Shown in pieces: positions 3,120-16,974 of a DNA stretch of 64,000 nucleotides. A program made the position numbers and the translations under genes. How positions within the stretch are numbered: the stretch's first letter is position 1; every line of letters starts with the position of its first letter. A model generated the notes under the pieces. That model saw only the letters and a list, made by a program, of their open reading frames with translations. It was not told the origin of the DNA and searched no databases. Source of the DNA: Candidatus Omnitrophota bacterium (GTDB lineage Bacteria; Omnitrophota; Gorgyraeia; Duberdicusellales; 4484-171); the NCBI GenBank assembly GCA_021735655.1, contig JAIPGM010000002.1:256001-320000 (forward strand), given 5' to 3'.

Positions 3120-4358
3120 TTAGGGCATCTTACGAATAGCTTCGACCCGTTTCAATACCGGCGGATGACTATAATCCAAAAATACCTTTAATCGATGCGG
3201 GCTTAAATTAGAAAGATTGTTTACAGTGAGCTTTTTAAGCGCCGAGATAAAGGCCTCCGGATTTTGATAGGTCCTTACCGCATAGCGATCAGCTTCATAT
3301 TCATGTTTTCGCGAAAGCAAATTACCGAATATTGAAAAAATAAAACTAATTGGTGTATAAAGGAAGCTAAAGAATATAAGCCCAGCGTAAACTGATATTT
3401 CATCCATTCTAAAAGCATTGAATAGCCCAGGATTTTTTATAAAAAATGAAAGCAGGTAAAACATCAGACCTTTAGTTAATGCTGAGAGTAAAAGACGTTT
3501 TATAATATGTTTCTTTTTATAGTGGCCAACTTCATGTGCTAAAACAGAAACAATTTCTTCAGTAGTGTGTTTTTGAATTAAAGTGTCAAATAAAGCAATC
3601 CGACGAGATTTGCCTAAACCAGTAAAAAAAGCGTTAGACTTACTTGACCGACGCGACCCATCAATTTTAAAAATACCCTTTATCTTGAACTTTTGCGAAT
3701 TAGCATAATCGCTAACCGCCTTTTTAAGCTCCCCATCTTCTAAGGGGGTAAATTTGTTAAAAAGCGGTAAAATTAACACCGGAGCAATAAAAATAAAAAA
3801 AGTACTTAAGAGAACCGTAGCCAACCAACACCAAAGCCAAGCTCCCTGATCGCTAAACTCGACAAAAAGACGTACAATTAAATAGAAAGCCGGACCGGCA
3901 ATAATTACCAACAATATCCAGTTTTTAATTAGATCAGTAATAAAAGTTTTTACGGTAGTTTTATTGAATCCATACTTCTCTTCAATAACAAAGGTCTGAT
4001 AAATAGAAAAAGGTATCTCAATAATTTGAAGTCCGAAAACAATAATTCCGGCAAAAATTAAACCGCTAAACTCAATATTTGAGCTCAAATCTCGGGAGAT
4101 TCGGTCAACTAAATTGAATCCTCCGCTTAGAATAAAAATGATAACAACTGTCGTAAAGACGGTTTTTTGAATAAGACTAAAGTAAGTATTTTCTTTAAGG
4201 TATTTTTGCGAACGACTATAGTCCTCAGGATTATAATAACCTTCAAATTCTGCAGGTAGACTAAAACCAACTGAGGAAATATTTAACATCTCTACGGTCA
4301 CCCGCAAGACATACTCGCCGATTAAAATAGCTAAAATAATAACTAAATAAGGATTCAT
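3120..4358 (-). CDS. M48 family zinc metallopeptidase (Ste24/HtpX-like), polytopic membrane protein
   Basis: A 412-aa ORF with multiple TM segments, an HEXXH motif (LAHEVGHYKKKH) and a downstream Glu (EYEADRYA). It sits immediately downstream of the GEMM-I riboswitch. Confidence 0.8.
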   Translation of the reverse strand: MNPYLVIILAILIGEYVLRVTVEMLNISSVGFSLPAEFEGYYNPEDYSRSQKYLKENTYFSLIQKTVFTTVVIIFILSGGFNLVDRISRDLSSNIEFSGLIFAGIIVFGLQIIEIPFSIYQTFVIEEKYGFNKTTVKTFITDLIKNWILLVIIAGPAFYLIVRLFVEFSDQGAWLWCWLATVLLSTFFIFIAPVLILPLFNKFTPLEDGELKKAVSDYANSQKFKIKGIFKIDGSRRSSKSNAFFTGLGKSRRIALFDTLIQKHTTEEIVSVLAHEVGHYKKKHIIKRLLLSALTKGLMFYLLSFFIKNPGLFNAFRMDEISVYAGLIFFSFLYTPISFIFSIFGNLLSRKHEYEADRYAVRTYQNPEAFISALKKLTVNNLSNLSPHRLKVFLDYSHPPVLKRVEAIRKMP

Positions 4359-4479
4359 AAAACTATTTATTTTTTGAAGTTGAAACTGACAAGATTAAAA
4401 AAACCGACAAGGGCTTCACGGTGTGTCTACCGGCAACTCAGCCACCATCATAGTCTAAGGCTCATACTCGCAAAGTTGG

Positions 4480-4595
4480 GGAGCGTTGCGTTTTAGGAGA
4501 GCTTGCGAATCATCTCGCCCAAGAACTATCTTAGGTCTGTCAGTTTTGCGCCCCTTACTTTCGTAAGGTTTGCCCTTATCGGCACCTTAATTATA
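4480..4595 (-). promoter_or_regulatory. c-di-GMP-I (GEMM) riboswitch in the leader of the M48 peptidase gene
   Basis: The minus-strand RNA reads GAUAAGGGCAAACCUUACGAAAGUAAGGGGCGCAAAACUGACAGACCUAAGAUAGUUCUUGGGCGAGAUGAUUCGCAAGCUCUCC. It matches the Vc2-type GEMM-I core GGCAAACC-(stem with GAAA tetraloop)-GGGACGCAAAGC-...-CCUAAAC... with two mismatches in the ACGCAAAGC box. It lies in the 290-nt gap between mscS and the M48 gene and is followed by a GC-rich segment and a U7 run at about 4393..4425. Confidence 0.7.
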
Positions 4596-4649
4596 CAATA
4601 TTTTTGGTGCTAATTTCAACCCAATATTCAGAATATATATACAATATCG

Positions 4650-5708
4650 TTACTTTGTCAGATGAACAGTCTGAGTAGGAAAAGCAAATTCAATCTTTTT
4701 CTTCTCAAATTCACCCTTAATGCCCAGGTTTATCTCTTGTTGAATATCCATATATTTATTATAATCACTGCTAAGCACGTAATAGACTACCTCAAAAATA
4801 AGATTAAACTCACCATAAGAAAAGAAATGAGCTCGATCCAAAGTGGCACCCTCAACACCTTCAATTATCTCCCCAATAATCTTAGGTATTTCTTTTAACT
4901 TAGAAAGAGATGTGTCATAAGTAGTACCCAGCTGAAACATCACTCTTCGTTTCTGCATTCGCTTATAATTACGTAAGCGAGAATCCGTCAAATCAGAGTT
5001 AGAAAAAACTAGCTGTTCGCCGCCTAAACTGCGAATTCGAGTAGTTTTAATTCCAATGTTTTCTACTGTTCCCAAAAGATCGCCAACAATAACAAAATCG
5101 CCAACTTCAAAGGGACGGTCAAAAATAATTGAAAAATAACTAAATAAATCCTTTAGAACTGCTTGGGCAGCCAAAGCAATGGCTACACCACCAATACCCA
5201 ACCCGGCAATAACCGTTGATATTTTAAAACCTAAGTTGTCTAAATAGAAAATAATAGCCAGGGCCCAAATAATAAACTTAGTAACCCTCAAAACACCCTC
5301 TAGACTATTCTTTAAAGTTTCACTGCGCCTAGACTTTCGCCAATAAACATCTAAACTATAGGTAATTATACGAATCAATAAACGGACCGTAAAAAAAGTT
5401 ATTAGCGCCATCACTAGAACGCCTAGGCCGCGATTAACCTGTTCACTTAAGGTCAAGGTTTTAAGACTTAAGTAGAAGGCCGCAAGGTAAAAAATCGGAA
5501 TAGCTATTTTCTCAATAATTTCAGCTAAGAAATCATCAATACTAGTAAGCGTCTTTGCAGCTAAACTTCTGAGTTTTTTTAAAATGATGAGCTCGAATAT
5601 CTTTATTACAACACAAGCTAACAGGAATGCACCAATATGAACAATATAATCCTGTAATGAGTTGCCAAGTATAATGTACTCTGAAAATTCTTGCATAGTT
5701 ACCCCCAA
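4650..5708 (-). CDS. Mechanosensitive ion channel, MscS family
   Basis: A 352-aa ORF with N-terminal TM helices and the MscS beta-domain signature (FDRPFEVGDFVIVGDLLGTVENIGIKTTRIRSLGGEQLVFSNSDL). Confidence 0.85.
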   Translation of the reverse strand: MGVTMQEFSEYIILGNSLQDYIVHIGAFLLACVVIKIFELIILKKLRSLAAKTLTSIDDFLAEIIEKIAIPIFYLAAFYLSLKTLTLSEQVNRGLGVLVMALITFFTVRLLIRIITYSLDVYWRKSRRSETLKNSLEGVLRVTKFIIWALAIIFYLDNLGFKISTVIAGLGIGGVAIALAAQAVLKDLFSYFSIIFDRPFEVGDFVIVGDLLGTVENIGIKTTRIRSLGGEQLVFSNSDLTDSRLRNYKRMQKRRVMFQLGTTYDTSLSKLKEIPKIIGEIIEGVEGATLDRAHFFSYGEFNLIFEVVYYVLSSDYNKYMDIQQEINLGIKGEFEKKKIEFAFPTQTVHLTK

Positions 5709-5727: not shown

Positions 5728-6921
5728 TTAATTTTCCGAAATCGAATACCGAACTTTAGATTTTTGTATTTCCAAAGTGCTAGCCAGTTCGGTTTCAGTT
5801 ACAAACCCGAGTTCTTTTAAAATTTCTCCAAGCATAATTCCTCTTTTCCAATGAATTAAAAGAGCTTCATCGAGCTGATTTTGAGAAATTGCCTTTCGTT
5901 CAATTAATATCTGACCTAAAGGTTTATCATTGGTTGTCTTTCGATGATAGATTTCCGGTGTTGCGTCTTTATTTGTTTTGGTGTCACGACGATCAACCAT
6001 AAATTTGCTCTCAGGGATAGTTTTGAGGTAACGCTTTATTTCGGTAACTTTTTCATTAAGCTGAATCATATTTTCGATACCAGAAGTGTACTCTCGATTG
6101 ACTACGGCAATCGAAATTGTCATCAAAGGTGTATTTGTTAATTTACGAGTTCGATCGCGATTAACCACAAAACCTTGGTTGCGATCTATTTCAGAGTAAT
6201 GAAAAGGAATAATCGTATCGAAACTTTTAATAAAATTGTGGCATATTTGTGCGTATTTATCCATGGTGCTGATAAAAACAAAATCATCTCCTCCAATATG
6301 ACCGATAAAATCATCAGAATTTCCGAATTTTTTTACCGCGTCAATTAACAAGTGAGTTGTATGAAGAATTACTCCGTCACCTTTACGGTAGCCATAGACA
6401 TCATTGAAAGATTTAAAATTATCAATATCTAAATAAGCAAATGAAAATGGTTTTCCAGTTTTAAACTTTTCATTTAAGGCATCCTCAAATATTTTAGCAC
6501 CAGGAAGACCAGTTAAGGAACTCGCATAAATACTGTGTTGGGCGCGTCTTGCAGCCATTTCAATTCGAATACGTAAATCAAGCGGGTCTGGTGGTTTTAT
6601 CAAATAATCATCGACTCCTTGCTTTAGACTTAATAATTGAGCGCGTAATTGCCGCTTATTGATTAAAGTTATGACCGGAGTAAAAGCAGTGGCAAAATTT
6701 TCTTTTAAAAGCCGACACATGGCTAATTGTTCTTTACGGGCTGATTGAATATCAATGACTATGACATCAGGGGAAATTCTTTTTATTTTTTCGATATCTT
6801 GCGGTTGAGTAAATTCACGTAGGAAAACTTCGTATCCCCAACCGTCAAAACAAAAGCGCAGAACCTCTTTTAATTGACTATCCGAAGAGATAATTAAAAT
6901 TTTATGTATAGTATCAATCAT
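5728..6921 (-). CDS. Response-regulator receiver - GGDEF (GGDDF variant) - MshEN/T2SSE_N-like c-di-GMP-binding domain protein
   Basis: The REC domain has the phospho-Asp context VIVIDIQ, T in PVITLI and K in DYLIKP. The GGDEF domain has LDIDNFKSFNDVYGYRKGDGVI and the signature GGDDF in place of GGDEF, and the RxxD I-site is replaced by NSDD. The C-terminal 50 aa, LGEILKELGFVTETELASTLEIQ, fit the MshEN c-di-GMP-binding motif LGxxLLxxGLLxxxxLxxxLxxQ almost exactly. Confidence 0.8.
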   Translation of the reverse strand: MIDTIHKILIISSDSQLKEVLRFCFDGWGYEVFLREFTQPQDIEKIKRISPDVIVIDIQSARKEQLAMCRLLKENFATAFTPVITLINKRQLRAQLLSLKQGVDDYLIKPPDPLDLRIRIEMAARRAQHSIYASSLTGLPGAKIFEDALNEKFKTGKPFSFAYLDIDNFKSFNDVYGYRKGDGVILHTTHLLIDAVKKFGNSDDFIGHIGGDDFVFISTMDKYAQICHNFIKSFDTIIPFHYSEIDRNQGFVVNRDRTRKLTNTPLMTISIAVVNREYTSGIENMIQLNEKVTEIKRYLKTIPESKFMVDRRDTKTNKDATPEIYHRKTTNDKPLGQILIERKAISQNQLDEALLIHWKRGIMLGEILKELGFVTETELASTLEIQKSKVRYSISEN

Positions 6922-6929
6922 TTAAACTA

Positions 6930-9900
6930 TTATACCACTTTCTTCTGTTCCTCAATTATTTTTTGGGCTATTTCCTTTGGTACCTGGGTGTACTTTTTAA
7001 AATGCATTGAGCAACTTGCCCGGCCACTAGATAAAGACCTAAGATTGGTTACGTAACCAAACATTTCCGAAAGTGGAGCCTCAGCCGAAATTAGCTTTTG
7101 GTTACCTTTTGAATCCATACCTAAAATTTTCCCCCGACGCGCACAAAGATAACCAACAATACCACTAGTATGCTCTTCTGGAGTAAGTACTTCCAAGCTC
7201 ATGCAAGGCTCAAGAAGAACCGGACTCGCTTTTAAAAAAGCGTTTTTAAAGCAAGTTCTTGCAGCAATTTTAAACGCTAACTCTGAAGAATCAACTTCAT
7301 GGTATGAACCATCAACGAGCTTTACCTTAACATCGACCACCGGATAACCGGCATAAGAACCTTTTTTCATTGCTTCAATAATACCTTTCTCAACTGCCGG
7401 TATATAGTTTTTAGGTATTGCTCCACCTTTAATGCTATCTTTAAATTCAAAACCAGCAGCTTCTTCATTAGGAGAAAGCTCAATCGCTACGTGGCCGTAT
7501 TGGCCTCTGCCTCCGCTTTGCTTAGCATGTTTATACTCTTCGCTAGTAGACTGAAGGATTGTTTCTTTATAGGCAACTTTAGGCTGACCGGCCTGCGCTG
7601 AAACCTTAAATTCTTCCTTCAAACGTTCAACGATTATTTCAAGATGTAATTCTCCCATACCAGAAAGAATTGTTTCAGAGGTTTCCTCGTCGGTATGAGC
7701 GTTAAAAGTGGGGTCTTCTTCTGCTAGTTTAGCTAAACCCTTGGCCATCCTATCCTGATCGGAACGACTCTCCGGTTTTATGCTGATTGAAACGACTGGC
7801 TCAGAAAATTCAATTGACTCAAGTAATATTGGATTTTGAATGTCAGAGAGTGTATCGCCGGTTAAAGTGGAACTGAGACCGACAATTGCCGCAATATCAC
7901 CGGCAAACACTGCGTCAACATTTTCTCGTTGGTTAGCATGCATTCGAACAATTCTCCCGATACGCTCTTTTTTATTTTTAGTTGCATTTAAAACATAAGT
8001 TCCGGCCCTTAAGCATCCCGAATAGATTCGAGCATAGATCAATTTACCTACATGCTGGTCAGCTTGGACCTTAAAAGCAAGCGCTGAAAAAAATTCATCA
8101 TCTTGAGGCTTACGTTCCAAGCTTTTTTCTTTATCATCGGGGTCAGAACCAATAACTGGCGGAATTTCAGCCGGAGAAGGTAGATAGGCAACAACTGCAT
8201 CAAGCAAGTCTTGAACACCCTTATTTTTTAATGCTGACCCGCAAAAAACCGGAACAATCTTATTTGAAACTGTAGCTTTGCGCAAAGCCTCAGTCAGATC
8301 GTCTTTGCTGATTGACTCCTCTGACTGTAAGTATTTTTCCATTAATTTACCATCATAAGAGGCTACCCGATCAACCAAACTATGGCGGTATCTTTGAGCG
8401 ATTTCTTTATAGCTTTCATGAATATCTTCCGACCTAATATCTTTGCCTAAGGATTCGTCATTATAAAGATGCATTTTCATATTAATAAGATCAATTATGC
8501 CTTTAAAGTCACCTTCCTTACCGATCGGTATCTGTAAGGCAACTGGTTTAGCCCCAATAGTATTTTCGATCTCTTCTAAAACCTTAAAAAAATCAGCCCC
8601 GACCCGATCCATTTTATTTATAAAGGCTATCTTCGGTACATGATATTTATCCGATTGGCGCCATACGGTTTCAGTTTGAGACTCTACTCCTCCCACCGCA
8701 CAAAATACAGCAACTGCCCCATCTAGGACCCTTAACGATCTTTCAACTTCAGCGGTAAAATCAACGTGGCCGGGGGTATCAATAATAGTAATTTGGCAAT
8801 CTTTCCAACTACAAGTGGTTGCAGCTGAAGTTATAGTTATACCTCTTTCCTGTTCTTGTTTCATCCAATCCATCTGAGCTGCCCCGTCATGAACTTCGCC
8901 GATTTTGTGCGACCGGCCGGTATAGAAAAGAACTCTTTCAGTAAGAGTAGTTTTCCCAGCATCAATATGGGCCATAATCCCAATATTACGGATCTTGCCC
9001 AGTTCTATTTTTCTCTCCGGCAGTGGCTCCTCTACTTTTTTTACTGCTTCAGGCTTAGGCTCGGCTTGTATTTCTGGTTCTTGAGCCGATAGCTCCGGAG
9101 TCACTTCTTCACTTGCGGTTTCAGGTTGCCCTTGGGTCAAATCTTTAGTTTCACCTTCCTGCCCTTGGATTAAAGATTCGTCTTCCTTTAGCGATTCTTT
9201 ATCTGAAGGTAACTCTTCAAATTCCTTAGTTTCTGAAATAGGTTCACTTGGCTGCGCCTGAACTAACTCATTCTCAAGATTGGAAGATTCTTTTTGAGAA
9301 TCACCGTCCTCAATTAAAAGAATATCTGCTAACTCATCGTCCTTAATAACGCCGCTTCGTTTAATCTCGCGTAATTTATTAAGAATACGAATCCGCTCCT
9401 GATCAATTTTTTCGATATCTTTACCTTTTAGCTCCAACTCCTTAGATTTAATCTCTAACTCATTTTTTAATTCTTCACTTTGTTCTTCTAAAAGAGAGTA
9501 CTCTTCTTTAGATACCCATTCGCTTTGACGTTGTTTTTCTTTCATTTGAGCAACTTCAGCAGCATGTGCGACAGTTTCTTTAGATAGCTGGTGCATTCTT
9601 TGAGTCTGATCTTTTAGCTCACTTTCCAAAGAAATAATCTTATCTTTCAATTGATTGATATTGACTTCACGAATTTTGATTACTTCTTCAGCTTGATCAA
9701 GTTCTTTTTTAAACTGCACACTCCGGGAAAACTCTTTCTCTAAATCCTTTTCCTTAGTAATCAATTTAACTCTCAAAGCCTCATAGGGACCTTTTCCTTT
9801 TTTCAAAGTAAGCTGCTGACTATTAAGCCATTTTTTATTGCGGTTAATTTCCTCGCCCAATTCTTTAGCCTTGAGGCTAAGCTTTTGATGCTCATCTTGC

Positions 9901-10139
9901 AAGCTGAGATACTCAGCCTGAGTTTTTGTTAAGGCGACAATTTCATTTTTTAATTTTGTTAGTTCCCTTTTTGAAGATTTAAGGTTTTCTGACAAGGCAG
10001 AAATTTTTTGTTGTTGCAAGTCAGGCTTAAGGCCAAACTTTGTACCCAGAGTACCTTTTAAAACTGAATCATCTTCGTTGTTAACTAAATACAGTACTAG
10101 GGCAATCGATACTCCAATTACAACAAAAATTAAAGTCAT
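6930..10139 (-). CDS. Elongation factor G paralog with a ~390-aa N-terminal extension (TM anchor + long coiled coil + acidic linker)
   Basis: The 1069-aa ORF is continuous. Residues 1-22 form a TM helix ([21 protein letters not shown]). Residues ~40-260 form a K/E/L/Q heptad-rich coiled coil. Residues ~260-390 are an acidic E/S/P/Q-rich linker. From [27 protein letters not shown]...[25 protein letters not shown] onward it is a full-length EF-G (G domain through domain V, ~678 aa). The ATG at 10139 has a TGnTATAAT element 6 nt upstream and no SD. There is no in-frame stop between the extension and the EF-G body. Confidence 0.8.
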
Positions 10140-11922: not shown

Positions 11923-12642
11923 CTATTCCTGTGCCGAATGAGTTGTATGTTTTTCAACAAAAAGTACTATTTTTTCTTGAATTTCAGGATTTATGTCATT
12001 AAATTCAAGCCCCATACCGGGAAAATCTTCCGGCTGTATCTCTTGGTCAGAAATCCAGACTATTTTAGCATCAACTTCAAGTGTACCTGGTTCAGGAATT
12101 AGGTGTATTCGAGTATGTAATAAATCACCCATTGAAAATAATTTTTGGGCAGCTACAAAAACTCCATCCCCGCTTAAATTGATAATTTTTCCGCTATAGA
12201 ACTCATCTTGACTAGAAAACTTCTGTCGGTATTCAATACTGGAGTTAAACGGTATTCGTTTAAAGCGTCGACGAAACTGACTGTCTGATGACTCAATGAT
12301 ATTCTTTTCTTCCTTAATCTTCTTTATCGCATGATCTTCGGTAACATGATATTCAAAGATTCGATCTAAACCTACGATTGAAAATAATTTCATTACATGG
12401 GAGGGAACATTGCATAGCTTCATTGCTCCCTGATGATTCGATACATTTTTATAAATTACGGCAATAAGTGATATGCCTACATAATCAATTAAATTAACAC
12501 CTTCAAAATTACAAATGACGTTCTTGGATTTATTACTAAGAACCCAGCCAACAGTTTCAACAAAATTAGAGGCATTGATATCAATATTCCCTTCTAGGTC
12601 CAAAATGGCCATGCCCTCTTTTTCACGAATATCTATCTTCAT
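11923..12642 (-). CDS. STAS (anti-sigma-factor antagonist, SpoIIAA-like) - PilZ fusion protein
   Basis: The N-terminal ~110 aa resemble an anti-anti-sigma STAS domain (MKIDIREKEGMAILDLEGNIDINASNFVETV...). The C-terminal domain carries both canonical PilZ c-di-GMP motifs, RRFKR (RxxxR) and NLSGDG (D/NxSxxG), about 25 aa apart. Confidence 0.7.
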   Translation of the reverse strand: MKIDIREKEGMAILDLEGNIDINASNFVETVGWVLSNKSKNVICNFEGVNLIDYVGISLIAVIYKNVSNHQGAMKLCNVPSHVMKLFSIVGLDRIFEYHVTEDHAIKKIKEEKNIIESSDSQFRRRFKRIPFNSSIEYRQKFSSQDEFYSGKIINLSGDGVFVAAQKLFSMGDLLHTRIHLIPEPGTLEVDAKIVWISDQEIQPEDFPGMGLEFNDINPEIQEKIVLFVEKHTTHSAQE

Positions 12643-14230: not shown

Positions 14231-16201
14231 CTAAAAGCTTACTTTACAACCGGCAAAGAAGTTTCTTTCTGGAGAAGGATAAAGTCCTCGCGTGGTACCG
14301 GTAAGATTAGTTGCAGCGTACTCACTGTAAAGTTCGTTAAATAAATTATTAACACCGGCAAAAAGCTCTAACTTTTTTCCGGTATAACTTAATTTTATAT
14401 TAGTTGTGTTGTAACTTTTTAACTTAGGGCTGATATTATTAAGATCATTAATTAAATAAACTTTATCTCGATAAAGATAATCAGCAAAAAATGAAAAGCG
14501 TTCAAAAAAATCATATTTTACCGAAGCTGTAAGCATAGCCTTAGGAACGAAAGGAACTTCCTTTCCAGCGTAAACACCGCCACGGAATTTCGCATCGATA
14601 AAGCGATAGCCGAGAGTAAACTTTGTATTGTCAAATGGGGTAAGGGTTGTAGTGAGATTCGCACCTTGACGACGAATTTTACTATAATTTTCGTTAGCGA
14701 ACGTCCCTGGGTTGTAGTATATTTCGTTATTAACATTCATTTGAAAATAATCCAAAGATGTGGTTAAAAAGTCAGTTAAACGCATATTGGCCCCCAAACT
14801 TATAGTTTTAGAACGTTGTGGTTTTAAATTTGTATTAATTGCTGCAGCCGGCCAAGTAACTAAGTATTCATCGGTCTTACCGACCCTCAAACCTCGCGAA
14901 AAATTAAGATAAATATTACTTTCGTTATCGATTTTATAGTTAAGTCCAGTTTCATACAAGCCTTCTCGAAAATTCAATCCATCATCAGTGCTTGTAGAAC
15001 CAAAATAATCAAAAGTAAACTTTTCTTTTTGCACCCTAGCCCCTAAATGCCCAGCAAGTTTTTCATTAAAGCTAATTTCATCCTGTAAAAACCAAGCTAG
15101 GCTCTGTCGATCAATGTCAGTAGCCGCGCTTGAGGTATCAGCTGATAAATCCGAACTATAAAATTCAAATCCGGCAATTAGCTCTTGTTGAATTCCTCTA
15201 GTATCAAAAGACAATAATAGTTGTGGCCGCGCTTGAAAATTAGTTATATGTTTGTCAGTAGACATGCTATAAGAAAGTAAATCCTCCAACTCATTTCGGT
15301 TACGATAAAATAAATCAACTGAAGCAATCAGCTCAGGTGAAAACTCGTTTTTAATAGTTAAGCCTAAAGTATTATCCTCTCGTTGATAGTTATTTAAAGG
15401 AGTTGTTGAGTCACGACGTGAAGTTCCAGCTAACCGTTCAGCTTCGGTTATATCATCTGGCAATCCATAGATATATTCGTGATGAGTCAAGTCAGCACTT
15501 ATCTCTAACTGTTCGGTAGGCCTAGAGTTTAGTTCTATTGAGCTGTATTTTGAGCGGTAATGACTATTTTGACGATAACCACTTGTTGAATGGTACTCAG
15601 AAAATGTGCGAAACGATAAAAGGTCTTCTCCACCTGAGGCTGAAATAGACTCTTTGGTCGAGCGGTAACTTCCGGCTTCAAAGTTAACTTCAACTGAAAG
15701 ATCCTTAGCTTGAGGATCTTTTGAAATAATATTAACTATTCCTCCGGCAGCACCCTCTCCATACAGGACAACTCCGCCACCCCGGATTACTTCTATTCGT
15801 TCAACATTTTTTAAGGGCAACTCAGTCCAGTTAACTCCGCTCATATCGATTTCATTAATTTTTCGACCATTCACTAAAACCAGCATGTTTGATGCAGCAT
15901 TATCACCAAAACCCATCATATCAACAGTTGTCTTAACGTTAGTTCCGTAATAATCGCTGACGTGTAACGACGGAACATTTCTTAAGAAATCAATTACTGT
16001 GCTTGATCCGCTAGCCTTGATATGTTTCTCGGTATATACTTTGGTCGCATAAGGAGTTTCAGAAATTGTTGTTTCTTCTACTCCGGCATAAGGAGTTACT
16101 ACTATTTGCTCTAAATCTATTTGTCCTTGCGCCAACAAAGGACTTAATGATCCAAATTGAATAGTCAAAAATAATATTAAAAATACAAAACACCTTTTCA
16201 T
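14231..16201 (-). CDS. TonB-dependent outer-membrane receptor (BtuB-like, downstream of a cobalamin riboswitch)
   Basis: A signal peptide (MKRCFVFLILFLTIQFGSLSPLLAQG) is followed by a plug domain and a 22-strand barrel that ends in a terminal Phe (GCKVSF). The start is taken as the ATG at 16201, which has a GGAGGGGG SD, rather than the upstream GTG used by the ORF track. Confidence 0.85.
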   Translation of the reverse strand: MKRCFVFLILFLTIQFGSLSPLLAQGQIDLEQIVVTPYAGVEETTISETPYATKVYTEKHIKASGSSTVIDFLRNVPSLHVSDYYGTNVKTTVDMMGFGDNAASNMLVLVNGRKINEIDMSGVNWTELPLKNVERIEVIRGGGVVLYGEGAAGGIVNIISKDPQAKDLSVEVNFEAGSYRSTKESISASGGEDLLSFRTFSEYHSTSGYRQNSHYRSKYSSIELNSRPTEQLEISADLTHHEYIYGLPDDITEAERLAGTSRRDSTTPLNNYQREDNTLGLTIKNEFSPELIASVDLFYRNRNELEDLLSYSMSTDKHITNFQARPQLLLSFDTRGIQQELIAGFEFYSSDLSADTSSAATDIDRQSLAWFLQDEISFNEKLAGHLGARVQKEKFTFDYFGSTSTDDGLNFREGLYETGLNYKIDNESNIYLNFSRGLRVGKTDEYLVTWPAAAINTNLKPQRSKTISLGANMRLTDFLTTSLDYFQMNVNNEIYYNPGTFANENYSKIRRQGANLTTTLTPFDNTKFTLGYRFIDAKFRGGVYAGKEVPFVPKAMLTASVKYDFFERFSFFADYLYRDKVYLINDLNNISPKLKSYNTTNIKLSYTGKKLELFAGVNNLFNELYSEYAATNLTGTTRGLYPSPERNFFAGCKVSF

Positions 16202-16227
16202 ACTACCCCCTCCTTTAAAACTAATCT

Positions 16228-16262
16228 TAAAATAAAAAAACCCTATACCTTCTGGTATAGGG
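16228..16262 (-). terminator. Rho-independent terminator / riboswitch expression-platform hairpin upstream of the TonB receptor
   Basis: Minus-strand RNA CCCUAUACC-AGAA-GGUAUAGGG is followed by UUUUUUUAUUUU. It forms a perfect 9-bp stem, lies between the cobalamin aptamer and the receptor start codon, and fits attenuation control. Confidence 0.55.
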
Positions 16263-16329
16263 TGCACCCTGATTTACTTGGCCCTAAAATAAAAAAATTC
16301 AGGTAATGTTTCCACGCAAAACCTAAACT

Positions 16330-16520
16330 TTGCTTCTTACGGCAGGTCTTCTGACTTCCCTACATCTTTTAGCTACCTTCCCACCTGCATTTTAAAACAG
16401 ATAGTGGTTTAAATCGCTAAAAGGGCCCTAAAATTATCTCTAGGGGTCGGGATCACAGCACCGGGAGTGTCTCCGATTCTCACGGAGTTCCCTATTAAGC
16501 TCCTTTTGAGCACCGTAAAA
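16330..16520 (-). promoter_or_regulatory. Cobalamin (AdoCbl) riboswitch
   Basis: The minus-strand RNA contains GGUGCU...UUAAUAGGGAACUCCGUGAGAAUCGGAG...CCCGGUGCUGUGA...ACCACUAUC...GCAGGUGGGAAGGUAGC. It matches the cobalamin aptamer consensus elements AGGGAA, GUGnnAAUC, CCCG-ACUGU-like, a B12-box-like CCACU and a distal GGGAAGG. It lies upstream of the TonB receptor (the classic btuB arrangement), with a consensus promoter upstream and a terminator downstream. Confidence 0.6.
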
Positions 16521-16550
16521 TTAGCTACTTTTATACAAAGAACATCTGTA

Positions 16551-16883: not shown

Positions 16884-16956
16884 TTTAAAACATGCCCCCA
16901 TCCCGACTCGAACGGGAATTTCAGCCTTAGGAGGGCCGCGCTCTATCCTGTTGAGC
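16884..16956 (-). tRNA. tRNA-Arg (anticodon CCU)
   Basis: The 73-nt sequence is GCCCCTATAGCTCAACAGGATAGAGCGCGGCCCTCCTAAGGCTGAAATTCCCGTTCGAGTCGGGATGGGGGCA. The cloverleaf was checked by hand. The acceptor has 7 bp (one G-U). The D stem is GCTC/GAGC. The anticodon stem has 5 bp around the loop CUCCUAA (U33, CCU, A37). The T stem has 5 bp around the loop TTCGAGT. The discriminator is A and no CCA is encoded. Confidence 0.9.
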
Positions 16957-16974
16957 TATAGGGGCGACGAATGG

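Follow-up and report, generated by a model that had tools for sequence, protein, structure and literature searches.

A conserved Omnitrophota protein with GGDDF and MshEN_N domains as a candidate product-sensing diguanylate cyclase

Diguanylate cyclases are normally limited by the binding of their product at an RxxD inhibitory site (I-site), which lies five residues before the signature and is common in GGDEF domains, but not obligatory. In the 64,000-nucleotide window of Candidatus Omnitrophota DNA analysed here, one gene encodes a protein with the variant signature GGDDF, no RxxD and a C-terminal domain of the MshEN type. This raises the question of whether the protein makes c-di-GMP, senses it, or does both on one polypeptide.

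Domain organisation and phylogenetic range

The gene was located on the minus strand at 5728..6921 as an open reading frame with an ATG start and a length of 397 aa, which bears out the reading frame given by the initial annotation. A database match revealed the product to be 100% identical to MCF7907705.1 ('diguanylate cyclase', Candidatus Omnitrophota MAG). Profile and fold comparisons confirmed the three-domain layout that had been read from the sequence, consisting of a receiver-like domain, a GGDDF domain of GGDEF fold and an MshEN_N module; no output domain other than GGDDF and MshEN_N is present in the 397-aa protein. The full-length AlphaFold2 model had a mean pLDDT of 83.6 and a pTM of 0.73. 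The linker preceding the MshEN_N module (aa 313-333; 5923..5985, minus strand) was delimited by the family conservation profile and by low pLDDT, which was found in a block around aa 311-320. It is largely variable and contains a conserved patch, Pro322-x-hydrophobic.

The ortholog family was found in Omnitrophota only and is conserved across that phylum, with a match in 135 species-level genomes. Among the matches listed, at least 120 homologs of MCF7907705.1 share 55-83% identity at a length of about 397 aa. Residue counts given below refer to 185 distinct family members, in which the GGDDF signature with the His before it, the residues for metal and guanine, and the Gly and Leu residues of the MshEN motifs are invariant or nearly so. 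Scanning the window with family HMMs for further GGDEF, receiver or MshEN_N genes returned the GGDDF gene alone, the models being family-specific and liable to miss distant copies.

The GGDDF domain and the receiver-like domain

The GGDEF-fold domain was assigned to aa 130-312 (5986..6534, minus strand) on the basis of PF00990, TIGR00254 and Foldseek. Both of the GGDEF profiles scored above cutoff, Pfam PF00990 with 51.8 bits (cutoff 23.8, E 1e-13) over profile positions 5-90 only and TIGR00254 with 50.9 bits (cutoff 37.4) over the first half of the profile only. In the AlphaFold2 model, the GGDEF (palm) fold is complete, with pLDDT values of 86-95 over aa 150-310. The best Foldseek matches were WspR, PleD, DgcR and isolated GGDEF domains, the latter aligning over 170-190 columns with target-normalised TM-scores of 0.65-0.81, and all structural neighbours are GGDEF cyclases.

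The signature was found at aa 210-214 (6280..6294, minus strand) by translation and PleD alignment. As noted initially, it reads GGDDF and does not match [G/A/S]G[D/E]E[F/Y], the fourth-position Glu being replaced by Asp (D213). Its G, G, D and D are present in 185/185 members and its F in 183/185. The residue corresponding to PleD R366 is His (H208, 185/185), and the LTGLxNRR turn is changed to LTGLPG(G/A)(R/K), which is fixed in the family. The reported loss of the I-site was likewise confirmed, as NSDD (aa 201-204; 6310..6321, minus strand) is found where PleD has R359-x-x-D362 in the alignment, with N201 in 167/185 members and never Arg, and D204 in all 185.

D165, D167, K170, N173, D174, D182, H208, G210, G211, D212, D213, K296 and K300 were each found in 185/185 members. 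D165 aligns to the metal-binding D327 of PleD, and N173 and D182 to its guanine-binding N335 and D344. The sequence alignment to PleD stops short of K296 and K300, which show the i/i+4 spacing of PleD K442/R446, the phosphate-binding residues of its last helix, at the end of the helix 285-299. Retention in every member implies that a functional nucleotide site is under selection and has not decayed. Asp182 at the specificity position (PleD D344) points to the use of GTP rather than a Hypr-type use of ATP and GTP; the identity of a Hypr or cGAMP synthase was rejected, as this position is not Ser. GGDD is also the catalytic motif in Cas10 palm domains. A Cas10-like palm was rejected, because Pfam Cas10 palm2 gave only E 0.1 against 1e-13 for GGDEF and all neighbours are GGDEF cyclases.

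GGDDF is generally classed as degenerate. For two GGDDF-EAL proteins, PA3258, which lacks a cyclase phenotype, and DdpB of Bordetella, cyclase activity has not been demonstrated. Activity of a GGDDF enzyme has been established for GSU1937 alone, a fusion of which produced cGAMP and c-di-GMP in vivo, while its GADDF mutant was dead (PMC8835794). The initial annotation had called cyclase activity uncertain. Given the invariant substrate and metal residues together with the activity of GSU1937, we revise this view: the balance is in favour of the GGDDF domain of MCF7907705.1 being an active cyclase.

The N-terminal domain (aa 6-128; 6538..6906, minus strand) was recognised from a sub-threshold PF00072 match, from alignments to MtrA and PhoP and from the AlphaFold2 model, in which it adopts the (beta-alpha)5 secondary structure of the receiver fold. 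The Response_reg profile PF00072 scored 27.9 bits, below its gathering score of 30.2; a precomputed match to it is carried by most orthologs. The alignments to MtrA and PhoP placed the phospho-acceptor Asp at D57 and the strand-5 Lys at K109-P110, both retained in 185/185 members. In CheY, D12/D13 form the Mg2+-binding acidic pair after strand 1 and T87 lies at the end of strand 4. The position of the acidic pair, aligned to DD of MtrA and D-E of PhoP, is occupied here by S12-S13 (180/185 and 165/185, respectively), followed by D14, and that of the conserved Thr by I87 (184/185).

This residue pattern is typical of atypical or pseudo-receivers, as which aa 6-128 would be classified. The earlier term 'response regulator' thus holds for the receiver fold, D57 and K109, but neither for the profile score nor for the pocket, which is incomplete. 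With Ser-Ser for the acidic pair and Ile for the Thr, a canonical phospho-input through this domain is doubtful, and the phospho-input attributed to the protein in the initial annotation is called into question by substitutions that are fixed across the 185 members. Among the genes next to the GGDDF gene in the related loci examined, none for a histidine kinase was seen. Annotation of a receiver domain should here not be taken as proof of two-component input.

The C-terminal MshEN_N module

The MshEN_N module (Wang et al. 2016) spans aa 334-386 (53 residues; 5764..5922, minus strand), as delimited by NF053729, the MshE alignment and a model of the fragment. It has the 24+5+24 layout of MshE, with motif I at aa 334-357, the spacer WKRGI at 358-362 and motif II at 363-386. 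The NCBIfam model NF053729 ('c-di-GMP_motif, MshE-related') was matched over positions 1-53/53 with 55.6 bits against a cutoff of 38 (E 3.3e-15), and was also matched by 54/54 orthologs tested (E <= 1e-5). A phmmer search of the PDB aligned the module without gaps to residues 8-62 of V. cholerae MshE (5HTL, E 2.5e-5) and also matched PilF (E 2.8e-11), and the family profile returned significant E-values for the N-domains of MshE, PilF and PilB only. The AlphaFold2 model shows a four-helix bundle (helices 335-341, 347-360, 364-370 and 376-396). The fragment model superposed with 0.7 Å rmsd over 56-57 columns on c-di-GMP-bound MshE (5HTL) and PilF GSPII-B (8PDK), and lay 3.8 Å from the non-binder PilF GSPII-A. 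The MshEN-type assignment of the C-terminus made initially is therefore upheld by profile and by fold. An MshEN_C / T2SSE_N1 subdomain is absent from the 397-aa protein.

At the level of single residues, repeat I matched 7/11 defined positions of the strict motif (R->P, G->K, I->A, Q->H) and repeat II 9/11 (R->M, I->K), while the relaxed MshEN pattern of 2016 failed at 2 positions in each motif. The ligand-contact positions L335, G336, L350, L354, G365, L383 and Q386 are conserved in 91-100% of the 185 members. Among the ligand contacts, LG, LxxxL and the Gln of motif II are kept; in motif I, the stacking Arg9 is replaced by Pro and the final residue is His in place of the phosphate/ribose-binding Gln (179/185), and motif II begins with a hydrophobic residue. 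His at the end of motif I is a minority state among related MshEN_N domains (21/386), and H357-W358 constitutes a family-specific signature.

Arg9 and Gln32 were the two residues of MshE first identified as important. Motif I of non-binding PilF GSPII-A also ends in His (PMC12002112). E. coli NfrB binds c-di-GMP with a Kd of 1 µM despite Pro at motif position 1, a non-Gly residue at position 10 and Arg at position 24. A hydrophobic residue begins motif II in PilF GSPII-B, which binds with very high affinity and whose Q190E mutant still binds at about 500 nM. The loss of binding in XpsE has been attributed to G11V, L29R, G40L, L54H, L58C and Q61V. cGAMP is bound only weakly by MshEN.

The C-terminal module is most likely a c-di-GMP-binding domain, and the role of a high-affinity receptor, as originally proposed for it, is plausible. 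As a further observation, the start of motif I, PLGQILLE..., resembles that of the 1 µM binder NfrB.

Genomic context, proposed mechanism and relation to known systems

The neighbourhood was inspected for other c-di-GMP components. A c-di-GMP-I riboswitch aptamer was found at 4429..4584 on the minus strand, where it scored 60.8 bits with Rfam RF01051 (gathering score 35) and covered the whole model (1-87), a terminal loop carrying an insertion of 71 nt. It lies 70 nt upstream of the start of an M48 peptidase gene (3120-4358) and is the leader element of that gene; a promoter-like TTGAAA-18-TATAAT lies ahead of it at 4619-4590. The riboswitch that the initial annotation had placed next to the GGDDF gene is thus real, but it is one gene away, 1.1 kb downstream and past an MscS gene. 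Riboswitch control of the GGDDF gene was rejected, the aptamer lying downstream, beyond MscS and behind its own promoter-like site. Of the 19 related loci with the same local gene order that were searched, 5 have conserved the aptamer, and it is kept in the closest relatives only.

The MscS-type mechanosensitive channel gene (4650..5708, minus strand; Pfam MS_channel domains) lies 19 nt downstream of the GGDDF gene and is probably co-transcribed with it in this lineage; it is present in 21/80 related loci and directly downstream in 20. On the other side, an EF-G paralog (6930..10139, minus strand), extended at its N-terminus by about 380 aa and with Pfam EF-G domains at aa 382-1060, ends 8 nt upstream, with synteny in 20/80 loci. 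The order EF-G, GGDDF gene, MscS, M48 is kept in about 20/80 loci, and in the others the GGDDF gene is flanked by unrelated housekeeping genes; no conserved operon partner was found across the 80 loci. A gene for a STAS-PilZ protein (11923..12642, minus strand; Pfam STAS and PilZ) encodes intact RxxxR (RRFKR) and NxSxxG (NLSGDG) motifs; its product is a candidate c-di-GMP receptor acting downstream. In 16/80 loci, the GGDDF gene has a homolog of it within 6 kb, in several arrangements. In 10/80 loci, a PAS-GGEEF-HD-GYP gene adjoins the GGDDF gene. The riboswitch and the STAS-PilZ and PAS-GGEEF-HD-GYP genes imply that c-di-GMP is used by the organism.

We propose, with a probability of roughly 0.5, that Omnitrophota have their conserved c-di-GMP source in this protein, a cytoplasmic diguanylate cyclase that detects in cis the c-di-GMP it makes. 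The GGDDF domain would bind GTP-Mg via D165/D212 (metals), N173/D182 (guanine) and K296/K300 (phosphates), and a pair of these domains would join 2 GTP into c-di-GMP, with Asp213 taking over the role of the usual fourth-position Glu. Having no Mg pocket, the receiver-like domain is probably a dimerisation or regulatory scaffold and no conventional phospho-acceptor. The MshEN_N module would bind one c-di-GMP via its two LG...L...L...(H/Q) repeats, in place of the lost RxxD site, and would influence the catalytic domain within its own chain. Action in cis is suggested by MshE and NfrB, in which the MshEN domain is on the same polypeptide as the ATPase or glycosyltransferase that it presumably controls. 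Feedback inhibition that sets a ceiling for c-di-GMP is the most likely outcome; both the direction of feedback, inhibition or activation, and the choice between action in cis and on a partner are inferences drawn from these analogies. Downstream readers would likely include STAS-PilZ and, in this lineage, the riboswitch ahead of the M48 gene.

Several features count against parts of this proposal. On the side of cyclase activity, these are the His for PleD R366, the altered NRR turn and the restriction of the Pfam GGDEF match to the first 90 positions; on the side of product sensing, they are the motif I His, which is the residue of the non-binder GSPII-A, and the change of Arg9 to Pro.

Other readings were weighed against the same evidence. 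The protein might be an effector instead of a source, with a GGDDF domain that is dead but serves as a GTP- or c-di-GMP-binding sensor or scaffold and with MshEN_N as the functional centre, reporting c-di-GMP that comes from elsewhere, for instance from the PAS-GGEEF-HD-GYP enzyme encoded nearby. This would fit the changes of the Glu at the fourth signature position, of the Arg before the signature and of the NRR turn, the non-canonical receiver, the canonical GGEEF-HD-GYP gene adjoining in 10/80 loci and the precedents of PA3258 and DdpB. We consider it rather unlikely, as metal, base and phosphate ligands kept in 185/185 members are not expected of a decayed domain, the I-site, by which inactive GGDEF domains usually bind c-di-GMP, is absent, the protein has no further output domain, and activity is documented for one GGDDF enzyme.

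Conversely, the protein could be an ordinary receiver-GGDEF cyclase whose C-terminal bundle does not bind the ligand and mediates dimerisation or protein docking as in XpsE or PilF GSPII-A, for which the 4/11 deviating positions of motif I (including Arg9 to Pro and Gln32 to His), the identical His of GSPII-A and the family-specific H357 and W358 can be adduced. The changes associated with loss of binding in XpsE are, however, absent, with G336, L354, G365, L379, L383 and Q386 being conserved; NfrB with its Pro and Arg and the Q190E mutant of PilF GSPII-B do bind, and the fragment model superposes best on ligand-bound structures, making this reading unlikely. Only a very small chance is given to the GGDDF/His208 variant making another cyclic or linear dinucleotide to which the bundle is tuned. 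The invariant H208 and D213 are unusual substitutions, MshEN has some affinity for cGAMP, and the GGDD of Cas10 palms finds a faint echo in the palm2 match; that match is insignificant, the guanine-specifying Asn173 and Asp182 are invariant with no Hypr Ser, the G336 and G365 positions, whose backbone amides read guanine O6/N7, are kept, and c-di-GMP-specific readers are encoded in the genome.

On the preferred reading of a product-sensing cyclase, a broader proposal can be put forward tentatively, namely that one conserved self-sensing cyclase is the c-di-GMP homeostat of Omnitrophota, in which a fused high-affinity MshEN_N receptor plays the feedback role of the lost I-site, and in which both the GGDDF/His variant and the phosphorylation-incompetent receiver are fixed and functional. 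If true, it would be the first MshEN-regulated cyclase and the first natural family of GGDDF c-di-GMP synthases. A cyclase family in which the I-site is missing and a dedicated c-di-GMP receptor is present in cis would reveal a second way of exerting feedback control. MshEN, a switch of ATPases and glycosyltransferases, would then take on the regulation of c-di-GMP synthesis itself. The at least 185 natural sequences with invariant GGDDF provide a clean test of Asp in place of the catalytic Glu, and the family offers a first handle on second-messenger signalling in an uncultured phylum, for which no c-di-GMP literature was found. No GGDEF and MshEN_N fusion beyond this family was present among the best 150 of 8742 MshEN_N-like cluster representatives, the architecture is absent from the 2016 catalogue of MshEN architectures, and literature text searches, in a survey that was not exhaustive, returned no GGDEF-MshEN fusion.

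Among known cyclases, PleD, WspR and DgcR, the best structural matches, share with MCF7907705.1 the succession of receiver fold and GGDEF fold. The residues for metal (D327) and guanine (N335, D344) are the same in PleD, and the small receiver-GGDEF core of DgcR is similar in size. Unlike these enzymes, the Omnitrophota protein has GGDDF for GG(D/E)EF, His for R366, no RxxD and a receiver without the acidic pair and Thr, and it carries an extra C-terminal MshEN_N. GSU1937 of Geobacter sulfurreducens, a Hypr enzyme (PMC8835794), resembles it in having GGDDF without an EAL or HD-GYP partner domain. It differs in its Hypr Ser and its product cGAMP, whereas the Asp kept in MCF7907705.1 implies GTP specificity, and in its transmembrane N-terminal domain, with no MshEN_N reported.

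The 24+5+24 motif is the same as in the N-domain of V. cholerae MshE and in T. thermophilus PilF GSPII-B, to which the modelled module aligns without gaps at 41% identity over 56 Foldseek columns and 0.7 Å rmsd. In comparison with MshE, Pro stands for Arg9 and His-Trp for Gln32-Lys33, and MshEN_N is the C-terminal domain of a cyclase, not the N-terminal domain of an ATPase for secretion or pili. Motif I of E. coli NfrB, PLGQILLENQVITEEQLD..., is nearly the same as PLGQILIERKAISQNQLD... of the GGDDF protein. NfrB is an MshEN receptor paired with one dedicated cyclase, DgcJ, in local c-di-GMP signalling, and its MshEN domain is required for the glycosyltransferase function on the same polypeptide (PMC8669469). 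NfrB and DgcJ are separate interacting proteins with a glycosyltransferase as the regulated output, whereas cyclase and receptor are fused here without a separate output domain. [quoted passage not shown]

Domain composition and conservation of the GGDDF protein

The gene at 5728–6921 (minus strand) is a real open reading frame of 397 aa, the product of which is identical to MCF7907705.1, annotated as 'diguanylate cyclase' on a 323-kb contig of a Candidatus Omnitrophota metagenome-assembled genome. The initial annotation had described a GGDDF signature, a missing I-site (the RxxD product-inhibition site of classical GGDEF cyclases) and an MshEN-type C-terminus, and had proposed alignment to GGDEF and MshEN profiles. 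Pfam and NCBIfam matches and the located motifs confirmed this far beyond chance, both profiles scoring above cutoff: the GGDEF domain (aa 135–220) with 51.8 bits in Pfam (cutoff 23.8), and the MshEN_N module (aa 334–386) with 55.6 bits (cutoff 38; E = 3.3e-15) as a full-length match to NCBIfam NF053729, 'cyclic di-GMP-binding domain, MshE-related'. The signature lies at aa 210–214, and NSDD (N201–D204) stands in place of RxxD. The receiver domain was sub-threshold in Pfam (27.9 vs. 30.2 bits).

The best 120 database homologs show 55–83% identity and are nearly all 385–416 aa long; all source-named entries among them are from Omnitrophota. With one genome scanned per GTDB species, relatives turned up in 135 genomes, from which 80 loci were retained for locus comparisons. 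The few relative-bearing contigs labelled otherwise (such as 'uncultured Planctomycetia', one 'Methanosarcinales', one 'Patescibacteria') are taken as naming or binning artefacts; gene order on the 'Methanosarcinales' contig (L009) is exactly that of the window. Upon clustering at 50% identity, the family collapsed to essentially one full-length representative (P0141). Domain identities and their joint conservation, as well as the state of each key residue, are direct observations: among 185 distinct members, G210, G211, D212 and D213 of the signature, the preceding H208, and D165, D167, K170, N173, D174, D182, K296 and K300 of the catalytic domain are invariant (185/185), with F214 being present in 183/185.

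In the receiver-like domain, alignments to MtrA and PhoP placed S12-S13 at the position of the acidic Mg-binding pair and I87 at that of the conserved Thr, while D57 and K109-P110 are retained; this pattern is fixed in the family. GlnR and FrzS, as examples of atypical response regulators, likewise retain the central Asp, yet are unphosphorylated. The sequence matches of the domain include receiver structures of FrzS, and a weak Pfam GlnR_1st match was found. The GGDDF gene has no histidine kinase gene beside it in the window, nor was one noticed in the neighbour clusters that were examined at related loci. Given the fixed pocket substitutions, the atypical-regulator precedents and the lack of an adjacent kinase gene, the phospho-input initially assigned to this domain is doubtful. 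The alpha4-beta5-alpha5 region (DDYLIKPPDPLDLRxR) is very strongly conserved, which suggests a role in dimerisation or docking. The domain also contains two invariant cysteines, C24 and C69 (about 6850–6852 and 6715–6717).

Catalytic domain, C-terminal module and predicted feedback

Alignment to PleD equated D165 with the metal ligand D327, K170 with K332, N173 and D182 with the guanine-binding N335 and D344, H208 with R366, D212 and D213 with E370 and E371, and N201–D204 with the I-site R359–D362. The second half of the GGDEF domain is too divergent for the Pfam profile; an AlphaFold2 model (pLDDT 83.6, pTM 0.73) contained the full GGDEF fold, and Foldseek matches were diguanylate cyclases only (WspR, PleD, DgcR and isolated GGDEF domains; target-normalised TM-scores ≤0.81). 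The invariant K296 and K300 are located at the end of the last helix and are, judging from spacing and position only, likely counterparts of PleD K442 and R446.

GGDDF is 'degenerate' by the usual classification, and Cas10 palm cyclases work with GGDD. That every ligand residue is fully conserved speaks for a functional nucleotide site, and Asp at 182 speaks for GTP as substrate instead of the mixed ATP/GTP use of Hypr-type GGDEF enzymes; a nucleotide product other than c-di-GMP is highly improbable. A GGDDF-domain fusion of GSU1937 was active in vivo, with its GADDF mutant being dead (Hammond laboratory, PMC8835794). We estimate the probability that the GGDDF protein has real cyclase activity at roughly 60–65%, and consider it unlikely that its GGDDF domain is an inactive scaffold that leaves MshEN_N as the only functional part.

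The C-terminal module (aa 334–386) aligned without gaps to residues 9–61 of MshE in the c-di-GMP complex 5HTL, and a profile of the family C-terminus searched against the PDB gave significant E-values for the N-domains of MshE, PilF and PilB only. A separate structure model of aa 317–397 superposed with an rmsd of 0.7 Å on c-di-GMP-bound MshE (56 columns, 41% identity), 0.7 Å on c-di-GMP-bound PilF GSPII-B and 3.8 Å on the non-binding PilF GSPII-A. The protein has the four-helix MshEN_N part only, without the MshEN_C subdomain. Contact positions are retained in motif I (L335, G336, L350 and L354, corresponding to MshE L10, G11, L25 and L29) and motif II (L364, G365, L379, L383 and Q386, corresponding to L39, G40, L54, L58 and Q61), and the module has none of the changes to which loss of binding in XpsE is attributed.

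Deviations concern the positions of MshE Arg9 (Pro in 183/185 members), Gly18 (variable, polar), Gln32 (His in 179/185, then an invariant Trp) and Arg38 (hydrophobic). PilF GSPII-B binds with very high affinity with the first Arg of the motif replaced by a hydrophobic residue (PMC11731258), and its Q190E mutant retains binding at about 500 nM. Motif I of the E. coli glycosyltransferase NfrB begins PLGQILLENQ... and ends in Arg, and the protein still binds c-di-GMP with a Kd of 1 µM (PMC8669469). The non-binder GSPII-A has His at the Gln32 position, with several further factors also blocking binding (PMC12002112). Of 386 related MshEN_N domains, 77 have Pro at motif position 1, a common state, and 21 have His at position 24, a rare one; at the position after it, Trp is outside the eight commonest residues. 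The His-Trp pair that closes motif I (aa 357-358, about 5848–5853) is seldom or never seen in other domains of this type. On balance, the module is predicted to bind c-di-GMP with a probability of about 65%; an active cyclase carrying an MshEN_N-like bundle that no longer binds nucleotide is unlikely.

In the most likely mode of action, the receiver-like domain would bring GGDDF domains together for c-di-GMP synthesis, and the product would bind the MshEN_N bundle in cis and feed back on synthesis, substituting for the missing I-site. Characterised MshEN domains share the polypeptide with the catalytic domain they presumably control: MshE carries an ATPase and NfrB a glycosyltransferase. The GGDDF protein has no catalytic domain in cis other than the cyclase. 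By analogy, inhibition is the preferred direction of this feedback, since cyclases are as a rule inhibited by their product, but c-di-GMP binding may instead activate synthesis or recruit a partner.

Gene neighbourhood and c-di-GMP-I riboswitch

An EF-G paralog (6930–10139, minus strand, 1069 aa) ends 8 nt upstream of the GGDDF gene and an MscS channel gene follows 19 nt downstream; given these gaps, the three are probably one transcript. The paralog is a complete EF-G preceded by an extension of ~380 aa. This extension combines an N-terminal hydrophobic helix, a long Lys/Glu-rich stretch resembling a coiled coil and a low-complexity acidic region, and it is kept in several related loci (L001, L002, L003, L008, L012, L013). 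The order EF-G, GGDDF gene, MscS, M48 is kept in only about 20/80 loci, the others having differing, mostly housekeeping neighbours.

The c-di-GMP riboswitch initially placed next to the GGDDF gene is present, as a c-di-GMP-I riboswitch at 4429–4584 (minus strand) with a 71-nt insertion in a terminal loop, but it precedes a Ste24/HtpX-like M48 membrane peptidase gene (3120–4358) and has its own sigma-70 promoter match (11/12) at 4619–4590. Its 3' flank, GCCCUUGUCGG followed by U7, is able to pair with the aptamer 5' end, which suggests a terminator-type switch controlling the M48 gene. It was found in 5 of 19 searched loci sharing the local gene order (L001, L002, L003, L005, L017); same-order relatives with a short intergenic region are without it.

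A STAS-PilZ protein (11923–12642, minus strand) has intact RxxxR (RRFKR) and NxSxxG (NLSGDG) motifs. Its homologs lie ≤6 kb from the GGDDF gene in 16/80 loci, in at least four gene arrangements, and this recurring proximity suggests a c-di-GMP-controlled anti-sigma-antagonist-like protein functionally linked to the GGDDF gene. A PAS-GGEEF-HD-GYP gene, encoding a canonical cyclase combined with a phosphodiesterase, directly adjoins the GGDDF gene in 10/80 loci and three arrangements, upstream in L019, L024, L025, L027, L029, L037, L038 and L043 and downstream in L051 and L072. Both recurrent neighbours fit a role in c-di-GMP signalling and say little on the specific mechanism. Elsewhere in the window, a cobalamin riboswitch (16324–16532, minus strand, 81.7 bits) ahead of a TonB-dependent receptor gene (14231–16267, minus strand) forms an ordinary B12-uptake arrangement, and a tRNA gene lies at 16893–16965.

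Comparison with known systems

With 8742 cluster representatives matching at E ≤ 1e-3, MshEN_N is a very widespread module, and often a multiplied one: many proteins with the most similar domains (P0121–P0128 and others) consist of 3–8 tandem MshEN_N repeats. Fusions of GGDEF with MshEN_N were surveyed among the closest MshEN_N domains and in the searchable literature. Among the 150 representatives ranking best of the 8742 by MshEN_N similarity, a GGDEF domain was found only in the GGDDF family; the published list of MshEN architectures has REC, HD-GYP, CheA, CheX, adenylate cyclase, kinase and glycosyltransferase partners and no GGDEF partner. Text search of the literature returned nothing on such a fusion and no paper on c-di-GMP signalling in Omnitrophota.

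The core of the GGDDF protein is of the PleD/WspR/DgcR type, its signature matches that of GSU1937, its C-terminal module matches those of MshE, PilF and NfrB, and a receiver and MshEN_N are already joined in Bd2402. With the database entry reading 'diguanylate cyclase' and a curated model recognising the C-terminal motif, the parts count as known; what is new is the combination of a GGDEF fold with MshEN_N, together with its fixed deviations.
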